Shown here: positions 2,589 through 55,293 of the stretch, piece after piece
Layout of the letters: the number at the start of each line of letters is the position of its first letter
Position numbering within the stretch: the first letter of the stretch is position 1
NCBI GenBank assembly: GCA_951406725.2
Contig: OX597830.1
Span: forward strand, 7,502,001 to 7,566,000
DNA length: 64,000 nucleotides
Direction: 5' to 3'
Source: Octopus vulgaris
Lineage: Eukaryota
Notes under the pieces: model-generated
Told to the model about the DNA's origin: nothing
What the model saw: the letters and a program-made list of their open reading frames with translations, nothing else
Database searches by the model: none
Translations under genes and position numbers: made by a program

Positions 2589-2662
2589 ATATATATATTT
2601 ATGAGAGTGTGTGCACATACACACATACACACACACGCACACACACACACATATATATATAT

Positions 2663-3313
2663 ATATAAATACAGTGTACATTTAACTGTTCTCTCTAGCG
2701 TGCAAGGAATCCGATAATGGATGCCTCTTATGTGTTTAAATGTACACTGTATTTATATGAATAAAATATAGTCTATTGACTAAATTTTTACACGCTAGGC
2801 CACTGGTAACGGAAATTTCTAATATTTCTGATTACCCTTTGCTATTATTAATTATTGATAATATTTTTCTGGATAATTTTCGAATTGAAAAACCGGCATT
2901 TTTTAATAACTGCCGACAAGGAGCTGCGCTTGCGCGGTAGATTTGAAAAATTAGAATGTATAAGCACGGGGCATATAATATGTACACGATTGCCTCGTGT
3001 AGATATATTTAATCTAAGGTGTTCCCGCTGAAGAAGATTCTCCTAGCAAATTATTTTATTTGCTAAAAAAGTCTGAAACCATTGGTCCAGGAGTTAGATG
3101 GTAAATGTTTTTATTTTTCATTCCTTTCGAAACTTTATCTCTAATAGTGGTTTGGAATTTAACTGCTCTCTCTAGCGTGCAAGGAGTGCTATGATGGATG
3201 CCTCTTATGTGTTTAAATGTACACTGCATTTATATGAATAATATATAGAATAATATATAGTCTATTGACTAAATTTTTACACGCCAGGTAATGGAAAATT
3301 CTAATATTTCTGA
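2663..3313 (+). mobile_element. Retrozyme/Penelope-pLTR-like non-coding element: ~150-bp direct repeats around a type I hammerhead, with a short inverted 5' segment
   Basis: Direct repeats 2680-2831 and 3157-3313 (period ~477); 2663-2685 is the reverse complement of 2736-2758; TA/GA microsatellites on both sides; hammerhead at 3012-3099. Confidence 0.75.
3012..3099 (+). ncRNA. Type I hammerhead ribozyme (predicted cleavage after GUC, C3087)
   Basis: Stem I ATCTAA/TTAGAT plus TTCCCG/CAGGAG with GGTG bulge; core CTGAAGA 3028-3034; stem II AGATT/AGTCT extended by TAGCAAAT/ATTTGCTA; GAAA 3075-3078; stem III ACC-ATT-GGT; C17. Confidence 0.8.
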
Positions 3314-3325
3314 ATACTCATATAG

Positions 3326-3374
<49 letters not shown>

Positions 3375-3480
3375 CATACATAAATACATGCATACATACA
3401 TATATACGTTTGTATGTATGTGTATAGACATATGCATATCGGTGTGTGTGAGCGCGTGTGTGTGTGTGTGTGTGTGTGTG

Positions 3481-3546
<66 letters not shown>

Positions 3547-3940
3547 TGTGAATATGAAAACATACGTAGCTATTTGTGAGTGTCTCGCTCTCATTTGAAA
3601 AGACCGGAGGCAGCCGATGATGGAAATGTTCAAAAACCAACGTTCGGTCCTGTCACATAATAAAGCAAGACATACATACGATATACTAATTGGTTGCAGC
3701 ATGGAATGATGGGAAGAGGAGGGGAGGCTACTCCTGTCAAAATATGATGGAAAATACGACAGACATGCAATACATACAGAAGCACACACACAGAAACACA
3801 CACAGACACACACACAGACACACACACAGACACACACACAAGTACGCACGTACGCACGTTTGTTCGGATGCATACAAACATTTACTCATATACGTGTGTA
3901 TGTGTATGTATGTATATATGCAAGTATATATGTAAGTATG

Positions 3941-11753: not shown

Positions 11754-13031
11754 CGAGGGGCGTTCAATAAGTAATGCCCCTGACCCACTACCCATAGCAG
11801 TAGAGCAACGAAACTTGGCACAGTTATTAGTCTTTTTCTACATAAGAACCACTCAGAGTTACGCATTTCTCCCATCGTTTAATGCAGCTCTGGAGACCGT
11901 TTTTGTAGAAGACCCCAGCTTGGTCCTCCAACCACGACGTGACTTCAGAAATCAAGGCTGCATCATCTGGGAAACGCTTTCCTTTCAAAAACAACTTCAT
12001 GGCTGGGAAGAGGTGAAAATCAGAGGGTGCAAGGTCAGGAGAGTAGGGGGATGGGGGAGGAGTTCATAGCCGCACGCCTGTGCTTCTGATCTGGCGACAC
12101 GCGAGTTGTGGACCGGAGCGTTGTCCTGCAAGAGGAGGATGCCTTTGCTGATCTTGCCCCGCCTCTTGATTTTGATAGCCTCTCTTAATTTCCTCAAAAG
12201 TGAAGCGTAATAGGCTCCTGTAATTGTGGTATCCTTTGCCAGGAAATCTGTCATCACTACTCCGTCCTGGTCCCAGAAGACTGTGAGCATGACCTTGCAC
12301 CGTTGCCTTCTTTGGAGGAGGTGAGTCACGGTGCTTCTACTGCATTGACTGGGCTTTGGTCTCTGGATCATAGTGATGGACCCAGGTTTCATCCTGTGTA
12401 ATCAGTCTTTTGAAAAATTTTGACTCATCTTCTTGGCACATCTCCAAATTCATCCTCGAACACTCGACGCGTTAGTGCTTCTGGAAAGGTGTGAGCAACC
12501 TGAGAATCCATCTGGCAGACACCTTTTACATATGCAAATGGTCATGAATGATAGTTTCCACAGACCCGGTACTAATCTTGACCTCATGGGCTATTTGGCG
12601 AATAGTTATGCGTCGATCTTCCAAAATGGCAGCCTCAACTTGACGGACAGATGCCTCATCAATGGCAGAAGGGGGGCGACCAGACCTGGGAGCTGTTTCC
12701 ACAGAGTTCCGACCATGTTTGAATTCACGATGCCAGTGTTTTACAAGGTCATATGATGGGGCATCATCACCATAAGTTACTTTCATTTCATCAAAAGTCT
12801 CCCGTGGTGTGCGTCATTTCAAATACAAAAACCGGATCACTGCTCGACACTCAACAGGCTCCATTTCACACTTGACTCAGTTCAAACACCTGTAAATCAG
12901 AAACCACAATTAGTTCAGAGCTGTAATTTTCCACTTAATCTATAGAGATATAAATAATTGCACATGCAAACTTTCGGCTAGATCAAACAAATGCAAGTGG
13001 GTCAGAGGCATTACTTATTGAATGCCCCTCG
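11754..13031 (-). mobile_element. Full-length mariner (DD34D) DNA transposon, 1278 bp, inactive
   Basis: TIRs CGAGGGGCGTTCAATAAGTAATGCCCCTGACCCACT and AGTGGGTCAGAGGCATTACTTATTGAATGCCCCTCG; TA target duplication at 11752-11753 and 13032-13033. Confidence 0.95.
11827..12864 (-). pseudogene. Mariner transposase pseudogene (stops and frameshifts)
   Basis: MEPVECRAVIRFL...APRSGRP...KVSARW...ITQDETWVHHYDPETK...KVMLTVFWD...LLLQDNAPVH...HPP-SPDLAPSDFHLF...KRWEKCV; several in-frame stops. Confidence 0.93.
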
Positions 13032-13310: not shown

Positions 13311-13892
13311 AGGCGGCGGGCTGGCAGAAACGTTAGCACGCCGAGCGAAATGCTTAGAGTATTTCGTCTGCCATTACGTTCTGAGTTCAAATCCCGCTGA
13401 GGGCGACTTTGCCTTTCATCTTTTCGGGGTCGATTAAATAAGTACCAGTTACGCACTGGGGTCGATATAATCGACTTAATCCGTTTGTCTGTCCTTGTTT
13501 GTCCTCTCTATGTTTAGCCCCTTGTGGGTAGTAAAGAAATAGGTATTTCGTCTGCCGTTACGTTCTGATTTCAAATTCGCCGAGGTCGACTTTGCCTTTC
13601 ATCCTTTCGGGGTCGATAAATTAAGGACCAGTTATGCACTAGGGTCGTTATAATCGACTTAATCCGCTAGTCTCTCCTTGTTTGTCCTCTCTGTGTTTAG
13701 CCCCTTGTGGGTAGTAAAGAAATAGCTATTTCGTGTGTCTTTACGTTCTGAGTTCAAATTCCGCCAAGGTTGATTTTGCCTTTTATCCTTTCGGTGTCGA
13801 TAAATTAAGTATTAGTTGCGTACTGGGATCGATCTAGTCGACTAGACTCCTCCCCAAAAATGTCGTGCTTTGTGCCTAGAGTAGAAAAGAAT
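13311..13892 (+). mobile_element. SINE family B, trimeric head-to-tail array
   Basis: One head, then three ~183-bp core units; units 1 and 2 end in GCCCCTTGTGGGTAGTAAAGAAATA, unit 3 ends in GTGCCTAGAGTAGAAAAG. Confidence 0.85.
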
Positions 13893-40519: not shown

Positions 40520-40680
40520 AATTTTTTCTTTCTCTTTCTGTTTATTTTCTCTTCTTCCTTTCTGTTGAAGAGCGTAGGCTCGAAACGTTAAAGACTTCCT
40601 TATTTTCCTGAGCGTCAAACTAATACACTTGCTTGTTGTTCGCACACCTGTCTTCGTCTCTTATTTTCCTATAAATTTCA

Positions 40681-54455: not shown

Positions 54456-55293
<838 letters not shown>

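Follow-up and report, generated by a model that had tools for sequence, protein, structure and literature searches.

The window, a 64,000-nt stretch of the Octopus vulgaris genome (OX597830.1, positions 7,502,001 to 7,566,000; contig C17 in our numbering), contains a short insertion flanked by (AT)n tracts and made up of an inverted 5'-truncated arm, one full copy of a non-coding unit and a second, partial copy (Table 1). The host genome is 2.8 Gb in size and rich in microsatellites. Positions in the unit are given as u coordinates, in which u1 corresponds to window position 2680 and the reference is the 471-nt majority sequence of 40 copies; the predicted hammerhead cut falls after u402. Most of the anatomy proposed in a preliminary description of this DNA is confirmed. 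The direct repeats are spaced by 477 nt, with 92% identity between 2680-2771 and 3157-3248 and additional blocks extending to 2835 and 3317; the 23-bp inversion at 2663-2685 is the exact reverse complement of 2736-2758 (23/23), sharing 6 nt (2680-2685) with the direct arm; TA runs are found where microsatellite flanks had been placed; and there are no ORFs of at least 120 aa within the element, the minus-strand stop-to-stop frames at 3269-3652 and 3301-3885 overlapping just its 3' end and the outlying microsatellites. The 3' end had been set at 3313, and probably lies instead at about 3326-3331, within the TA run. In a (TA)n target of this kind, target-site duplications are unreadable. Directly upstream of helix I, a TATA-like run at 3000-3011 is a possible promoter element, and TATA is present in most subfamily representatives.

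Table 1. Features of the insertion and of its hammerhead motif (window coordinates).
Feature	Position	Strand	Remarks
Left flank, (AT)n target microsatellite	2651..2662	.	sequence
Inverted 5'-truncated arm, u57-u79	2663..2685	-	outer end at the 'short' site
Single full unit, 477 nt (family majority 471 nt)	2680..3156	+	94% identity to subfamily majority
Type I hammerhead motif	3012..3099	+	sequence motif and fold calculation; cleavage predicted
Distal helix I	3012-3017/3094-3099	+	bulged helix I
Proximal helix I	3024-3027/3088-3091	+	C-A mismatch at 3026/3089
Core CTGAAGA	3028-3034	+	matches CUGANGA
Helix II	3035-3074	+	extended
Core GAAA	3075-3078	+	
Helix III, 3 bp with 3-nt loop	3078-3080/3084-3086	+	
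Cleavage site GTC	3085-3087	+	predicted cut after 3087
Predicted 75-nt spliceosomal intron	3101..3175	+	signals ATG, then GTAAAT ... TTTAAC-pyrimidines-TAG; from sequence only
Second, partial unit	3157..3331	+	alignable to 3317; end at the 'long' site inferred within TA run
Right flank, (AT)n target microsatellite, then (AG)n	3326..3343	.	sequence

The motif had been described as a complete type I hammerhead. All of its parts are in place, but one helix I pair is broken: at 3023 and 3026 this copy departs from its relatives by changes of its own, of which the latter disrupts the pair. In run X17, with a depth of 23,251, A accounts for 22,807 at 3023 and T for 22,944 at 3026. Folding places the hammerhead structure of the window copy 7.9 kcal/mol above the minimum-energy fold, compared to 3.5 kcal/mol for the subfamily majority and 0.7 kcal/mol for a subfamily D copy, and unconstrained folding of 3005-3105 retrieves helix II alone (z = -1.2). 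Comparison with Rfam, proposed as a check, gives no hammerhead match, either at E ≤ 10 over 321 nt or at the gathering score over seven sources; the long helix II may put the motif outside the Rfam models. A descriptor of the bare core also matches 59 of 2000 shuffled versions of the unit, making the core by itself weak evidence. With Rfam blank and the core arising in shuffles too, the case for a hammerhead therefore rests on the relatives of this copy, and specifically on covariation between subfamilies. The suggestion that this locus gives rise to a self-cutting, circularising monomer is not upheld, as two hammerheads would be needed and 2663-3331 contains just one, which is damaged; hence the locus is unable to release a monomer. 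It is a decayed and probably dead copy, showing no sign of a host role.

Elsewhere in the window, hammerhead-like motifs at 54970 (minus strand) and 44362 (plus strand) have GAAACCGAGGT in common, the former combining a GUA site with a helix I of 6 bp, and probably represent another family. A DDE transposase fragment is found at 11997-12398 on the minus strand (Pfam Transposase_1, E 5e-18), and a 183-bp unit, present in 2.6 tandem copies at 13359-13843, has what we take to be a resemblance to an octopus SINE.

A dispersed family with hammerhead and intron signals

An 18-nt junction tag has 333 exact matches in the genome, and its control none; as the tag is held by 34 of the 90 junctions in loci chosen without it, the subfamily of the window copy is estimated to contain about 880 junctions, or some 900 copies. 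A motif common to all subfamilies has 1,505 exact matches, again with none for the control, so that there are at least 1,505 copies. The family unit is about 470 nt long, ORF-less and 33% GC; long segments have a median identity of 93% to the subfamily majority (44 segments), and at least five subfamilies (A-E), 53-88% alike between themselves, can be distinguished, with more variants besides. Contigs from sequencing runs of four organisms also carry the unit. The proposed non-coding, hammerhead-bearing retroelement family is supported, its dispersed ORF-less copies having Penelope-type insertion anatomy. The genome-wide search for the unit that had been suggested retrieves many dispersed copies, which are 5'-truncated, shorter than two units and in most cases bounded by (TA)n; at the loci fetched there is neither an array of three units nor an ORF of a Penelope-like element (PLE) in register. 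No run of three hammerheads is found in 345 loci, the longest arm in the tag-selected loci being 910 nt. Two largely intact hammerheads in tandem are present at six fetched loci, seven having been listed before L087 was removed because its arm is only 456 nt long. L202 and L203 have a common u411/u189 junction and lie on one contig; L181/L203/L202 and L237/L238 are duplicated or mirrored composite insertions, which suggests later segmental duplication.

The hammerhead helices were compared in 116 distinct copies chosen by the core pattern, helix I being counted on a MAFFT alignment and helix II by anchoring. The cleavage site is GTC in 109 of the 116. Helix II takes the forms AGACT/AGTCT, AGGCT/AGTCT, GAGCT/AGCTT, GGCAA/TTGCC and GACAA/TTGTC in these copies, and helix I the forms ACCTG/CAGGA, TCCTG/CAGGA, TTCTG/CAGAA and CTCTG/CAGAG, while helix III is found as ACCATTGGT, ACCATGGT, ACTATGCATAGT and ACCTAGGT, the common forms being palindromic or near-palindromic. 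The covariation that had been put forward as a check is consequently present, with helices I and II changing on both sides between subfamilies; these compensatory changes amount to a handful of events, one per subfamily, rather than 116. Among 145 hammerhead-length copies chosen without regard to the core, 94 have it intact. The first pair of helix II (G10.1-C11.1) is A-U in subfamily A (52/52), G-C in D (19/23), G-U in C and A-A in 12 of 27 B copies, A and B having G-C one step outward, and U occupies core position 3, the first core base, in 22 of the 116 copies. At L246 (1377-1660, minus strand), a 3' part similar to subfamilies C and D is fused within helix II to unrelated DNA on its upstream side, which contributes a CTGATGA core, resulting in a chimeric hammerhead-like motif.

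An intron-like segment follows the hammerhead. It opens with GTAAA, 13 nt beyond the cut site, and about 75 nt further on comes a pyrimidine tract with TAG; in the window copy the segment spans the unit junction. A GTAAA..TAG segment, mostly of 73-76 nt, is present in 36/43 copies of A, 23/28 of B, 3/3 of C and 21/21 of D; because the search pattern demanded the donor, it is the distance to the acceptor that constitutes the actual test. The segment is also found in 24 of 30 loci chosen by the donor motif. In an alignment of eight sequences from five subfamilies, in which the hammerhead core of subfamily E is out of register, the invariant runs of at least 4 nt are GTAAA, ATTT, GTGG and CTAG, all within the intron segment; several copies lack a branch-point A. 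A short frame joining the ATG to the acceptor was considered and rejected, as it is not conserved and subfamily D has no ATG. No spliced junction is found in the genome or in 315 loci, matching the intron retention of PLEs if the predicted intron is genuine. In contigs of four presumed-RNA runs, which represent portions of the unit, none of 12 listed joints matches the intron, nor does any of the 15 listed out of 91 other contig joints; as such contigs cannot reveal ends, strand or circles, this speaks neither for nor against splicing.

The hammerhead and intron signals might be inert relics, or promoter or protein-binding signals, in elements that spread without cutting. The non-standard first pair of helix II and the cores with U at position 3 speak for this, as does the lack of a clear pile-up of ends at the cut (see below); eight of nine predicted Xenopus retrozymes are described as uncleaved in vitro (10.64898/2026.07.22.740005), and the 75-bp intron in the 5' UTR of Penelope is reported to overlap its internal promoter (PMC8557442). 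Nevertheless, this explanation appears improbable, given that the core, the GUH site and all three helices are kept by compensatory change across subfamilies that are 53-75% alike, a pattern difficult to account for unless the catalytic fold is under selection.

Insertion anatomy and a candidate partner element

Insertions were studied at 118 loci fetched by the junction tag, 79 on contigs C1-5 and 39 on C6-14 after removal of duplicates; these come from among the matches listed (the first 100 of 333, and of 150), and the sample is biased toward arms that span the tag. In this sample, limited to the matches listed, the arms have a median length of 204 nt, 14 of 207 reach at least one unit, and 157 of 207 end in u76-84, u88-93, u166-177 or u181-187. 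Head-to-head inversions are present at 72 of these tag-selected loci among the matches listed, and 123 of 162 cluster ends run into simple repeat, again among the matches listed. Both outer ends fall in u74-95 or u160-188 in 43 of 73 head-to-head pairs, the other 30 being unscorable. Among the matches listed, 42 of these 43 scorable pairs combine one short and one long end, where 50% would be expected, with 25/25 on C1-5 and 17/18 on C6-14; over all loci up to L280 the figure is 62 of 64 pairs. This rule was not fixed beforehand, having been spotted only after both sets had been seen. The window copy obeys it, its inverted arm being short and its direct arm long, and subfamily D uses the same two end sites. 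Neither the rule nor the intron-like segment featured in the preliminary description.

The 'long' site lies about 85-97 nt beyond the 'short' site. Arm ends have TA microhomology with the target; as the longest TA run of the unit is the end of just one of 207 arms among the matches listed, the position of the end sites must matter, and not homology alone. PLE insertions in which just one of the ends carries a tail are described in 10.1101/2021.04.23.441226, and in vitro work has demonstrated that a PLE tail is delimited by two internal start sites (PMC11167929). The inverted 5' end of PLE style recognised at the window locus is therefore borne out by the family, which has partial tandems, inverted truncated arms and a tail on one end. 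That inverted arms arise in general by fold-back of a single cDNA was rejected, because at loci such as L091 and L092 neither arm is contained in the other; fold-back may account for arms with identical end positions, as at L061 and L136.

A pile-up of 5' ends at the cut, which cutting of the template might leave, was sought in three sets of loci. On C1-5 there are 11 ends in 580 nt at risk; on C6-14, where the test had been fixed beforehand, there are 7 ends in 290 nt versus 33 in 2948, which is not significant (p = 0.063); the pooled p is 0.005. There is no pile-up in the third set, with one end in 291 nt. The excess is spread over u397-432 and many of the ends fall in the helix III palindrome, so the pile-up is not taken as a sign of cutting.

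In the classical retrozyme cycle, tandem transcripts are cut and ligated to circles of about 470 nt, which accumulate and form the template that is reverse-transcribed in a rolling manner. Such a cycle would not compete with mobilisation by a PLE, the explanation preferred here, but states it more sharply. The cut site is crossed by 85 of 207 arms among the matches listed, and crossed twice by 13 arms in L001-L250, implying that the template was uncut, re-ligated or switched. The tandem repeats of one arm have a haplotype in common in 21 of 23 cases, compared to an expected 57%, and the circular monomer folds well (z = -4.5 versus 40 shuffles). No three-unit array is found, yet the lineage has outlived about 45% divergence, so that unit length must be regenerated somehow. 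Six loci have two largely intact hammerheads in tandem. However, head-to-head arms are about as concordant in haplotype (41/46, against the same 57%), and the concordance may consequently reflect only a shared source. Tandem arms at L027 and L051 have mixed haplotypes, impossible from one monomer circle, and the read-through would also be explained by an unsampled or unassembled tandem master array. In the only PLE tested in vitro, uncut RNA is given as the main substrate (PMC11167929). Taken together, the circular cycle is quite conceivable, if somewhat short of an even chance.

A GIY-YIG frame adjoining one unit copy led to a large PLE family, with 14,678 first-look candidates. This abundant family has RT and GIY-YIG domains, the GIY-YIG match being under the Pfam cut-off, and, going by PMC8557442, its CxxC linker may be taken as Neptune-like. 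It carries its own hammerhead and ends in (TA)n. As a sequence parent of the unit it was rejected, no common sequence being found at 30 loci of that family. Naiads, reported from Octopus, target (TA)n as well (PMC8557442, 10.1101/2021.04.23.441226).

One reading of the unit is that it serves as terminal repeat to an autonomous PLE, of which no ORF-bearing copy entered the sample, the copies observed being ordinary 5'-truncated remnants. The hammerhead, the ATG followed by the predicted intron and the two 3' end sites do resemble a pLTR and ORF start as described in PMC11167929 and PMC8557442, and the partner search covered only one PLE protein family. Against it, the unit is bordered on both sides by itself and not by an ORF, and arms longer than one unit are common. 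No PLE ORF is attached in register beside 277 unit loci or 57 further loci; matches to the PLE protein occur at seven distinct places among the 277, never at a constant position. Similarly, among 67 5' flanks only one pair is alike up to the junction, and that sequence is (TA)n. An origin as pLTR remnants is accordingly very unlikely, and the situation named at the outset as reducing the element to such a remnant, in which copies are always joined to a full PLE ORF, is not seen at these loci.

At L279 the 3' part of a member of the abundant PLE family and a unit arm are joined 5'-to-5', with both outer ends in (TA)n. This hybrid is one of 106 solo 5' ends (four were flagged, of which L279 and L213 were inspected). 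This locus could be a link between the unit and the abundant PLE family, or could result from two insertions plus a deletion.

Other contacts between unit and PLE are observed. A near full-length PLE follows u69 at L288 (1690-1885; the same as L222), and a diverged PLE piece precedes u407 at L065 (1152-1613), the unit being joined directly to 5' parts of PLE ORFs; these joints may represent nested insertion or template switching. At L069 (422-1687), a PLE endonuclease region abuts an inverted arm with an unusual outer end at u252, in an orientation off the regular insertion pattern. The window itself has, at 40565 on the plus strand, a short element whose hammerhead is that of the abundant PLE family, with U as base 3 of the core, and which runs into (TA)n some 120 nt later; similar short elements occur in several unit loci, namely L139, L213, L216, L220, L290 and L313.

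Proposed mobilisation and comparison with known elements

The explanation that accounts best for these data, and that is held here with considerable confidence, is that the unit belongs to an ORF-less family with a covarying hammerhead fold and a predicted intron, likely copied into (TA)n in trans by the RT and GIY-YIG endonuclease of a PLE, the window locus being a decayed copy. The hammerhead would cut tandem transcripts to unit-length RNA, probably acting as a dimer in view of its short, near-palindromic helix III; dimeric activity has been linked to a short palindromic helix III by Cervera and de la Pena (PMC4209133). Unspliced RNA continuous across the cut site, whether uncut multimer or cut and ligated circle, would then bind the PLE protein, whose endonuclease would open a (TA)n tract. 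Each DNA end would prime cDNA at a fixed, AU-rich position of its own inside the unit RNA, one of them about 150-160 nt and the other about 235-245 nt downstream of the cut. Two truncated cDNAs would finally join 5'-to-5' via short microhomology, or one cDNA would join the target.

A bolder proposal, speculative and on balance rather unlikely, is that the family is a retrozyme lineage with an intron. It would persist over long times as a replicon of circular RNA, with a dimer-activated hammerhead and a spliceosomal intron by the cut, copied unspliced by a Neptune-like PLE unrelated in sequence, the insertions recording that each DNA end is primed at a different fixed RNA site. If true, it would offer a 470-nt minimal substrate for PLE tails, partial tandems, inversions and intron retention. 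The way in which PLEs come to insert as tandems and inversions, and to retain introns, is treated as an open question in PMC8557442 and PMC3846280; a short ORF-less element with many copies gives statistics beyond those of rare full-length elements (42/43 pairs; no spliced copy). The insertion anatomy also ties an invertebrate unit of retrozyme type to PLE machinery, a link for which 10.64898/2026.07.22.740005 relies on co-occurrence and on similarity to pLTRs, mostly among vertebrates.

The locus is a non-autonomous Penelope-like element of the animal retrozyme kind, which is already published: animal non-LTR retrozymes have been described as non-autonomous PLE derivatives (PMC7229834; 10.64898/2026.07.22.740005). 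As in those elements, the unit is non-coding and of low GC (33%), has one type I hammerhead and would be moved by PLEs, as proposed in the same two sources; its size is inside the 51-972 bp range of the retrozymes of Li, Clavereau & Pollet 2026 (10.64898/2026.07.22.740005). By contrast, the predicted intron, inverted arms and microsatellite targeting of the octopus family are not found in the available text of either source: the main text of PMC7229834 (Cervera & de la Pena 2020) contains neither 'inverted' nor 'microsatellite', and 'intron' only within a reference title. Within the literature covered, no report was found of a cephalopod retrozyme, a retrozyme intron or a count of the short/long rule; the supplements of PMC7229834 and 10.64898/2026.07.22.740005 may list related families.

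Like EN+ PLEs (Penelope/Poseidon, Neptune and Naiad, as described in PMC8557442, PMC3846280, PMC11167929 and PMC4209133), the family inserts into (TA)n as partial tandems with an arm that is inverted and 5'-truncated, and with a tail at a single end. Both also have a pair of internal start sites on the 3' side of the hammerhead and a hammerhead with a short palindromic helix III; the 75-nt intron that is retained in PLEs has a predicted counterpart in the octopus unit. It differs in having no ORF, a tail of about 85-97 nt rather than 30-40, and a hammerhead with a long helix II and bulged helix I. Furthermore, the start sites of the octopus unit share TA microhomology with the target, whereas that of the anole element is described as not homologous to the cut DNA, and the predicted octopus intron lies after the cut site, while the intron end in D. 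virilis maps to the 5' side of helix I. Chlamys MRC1 is likewise an ORF-less PLE derivative forming pLTRs and head-to-tail insertions (PMC8557442 / 10.1101/2021.04.23.441226). Non-autonomous Chlamys elements are, however, described as generally resembling an autonomous family at the 3' end, a sequence link not found for the octopus unit in the one PLE family searched, and most Chlamys have no hammerhead, in contrast to the octopus unit. What the octopus family adds to this known kind of element is a set of conserved intron signals, a strict two-site rule and a hybrid insertion.
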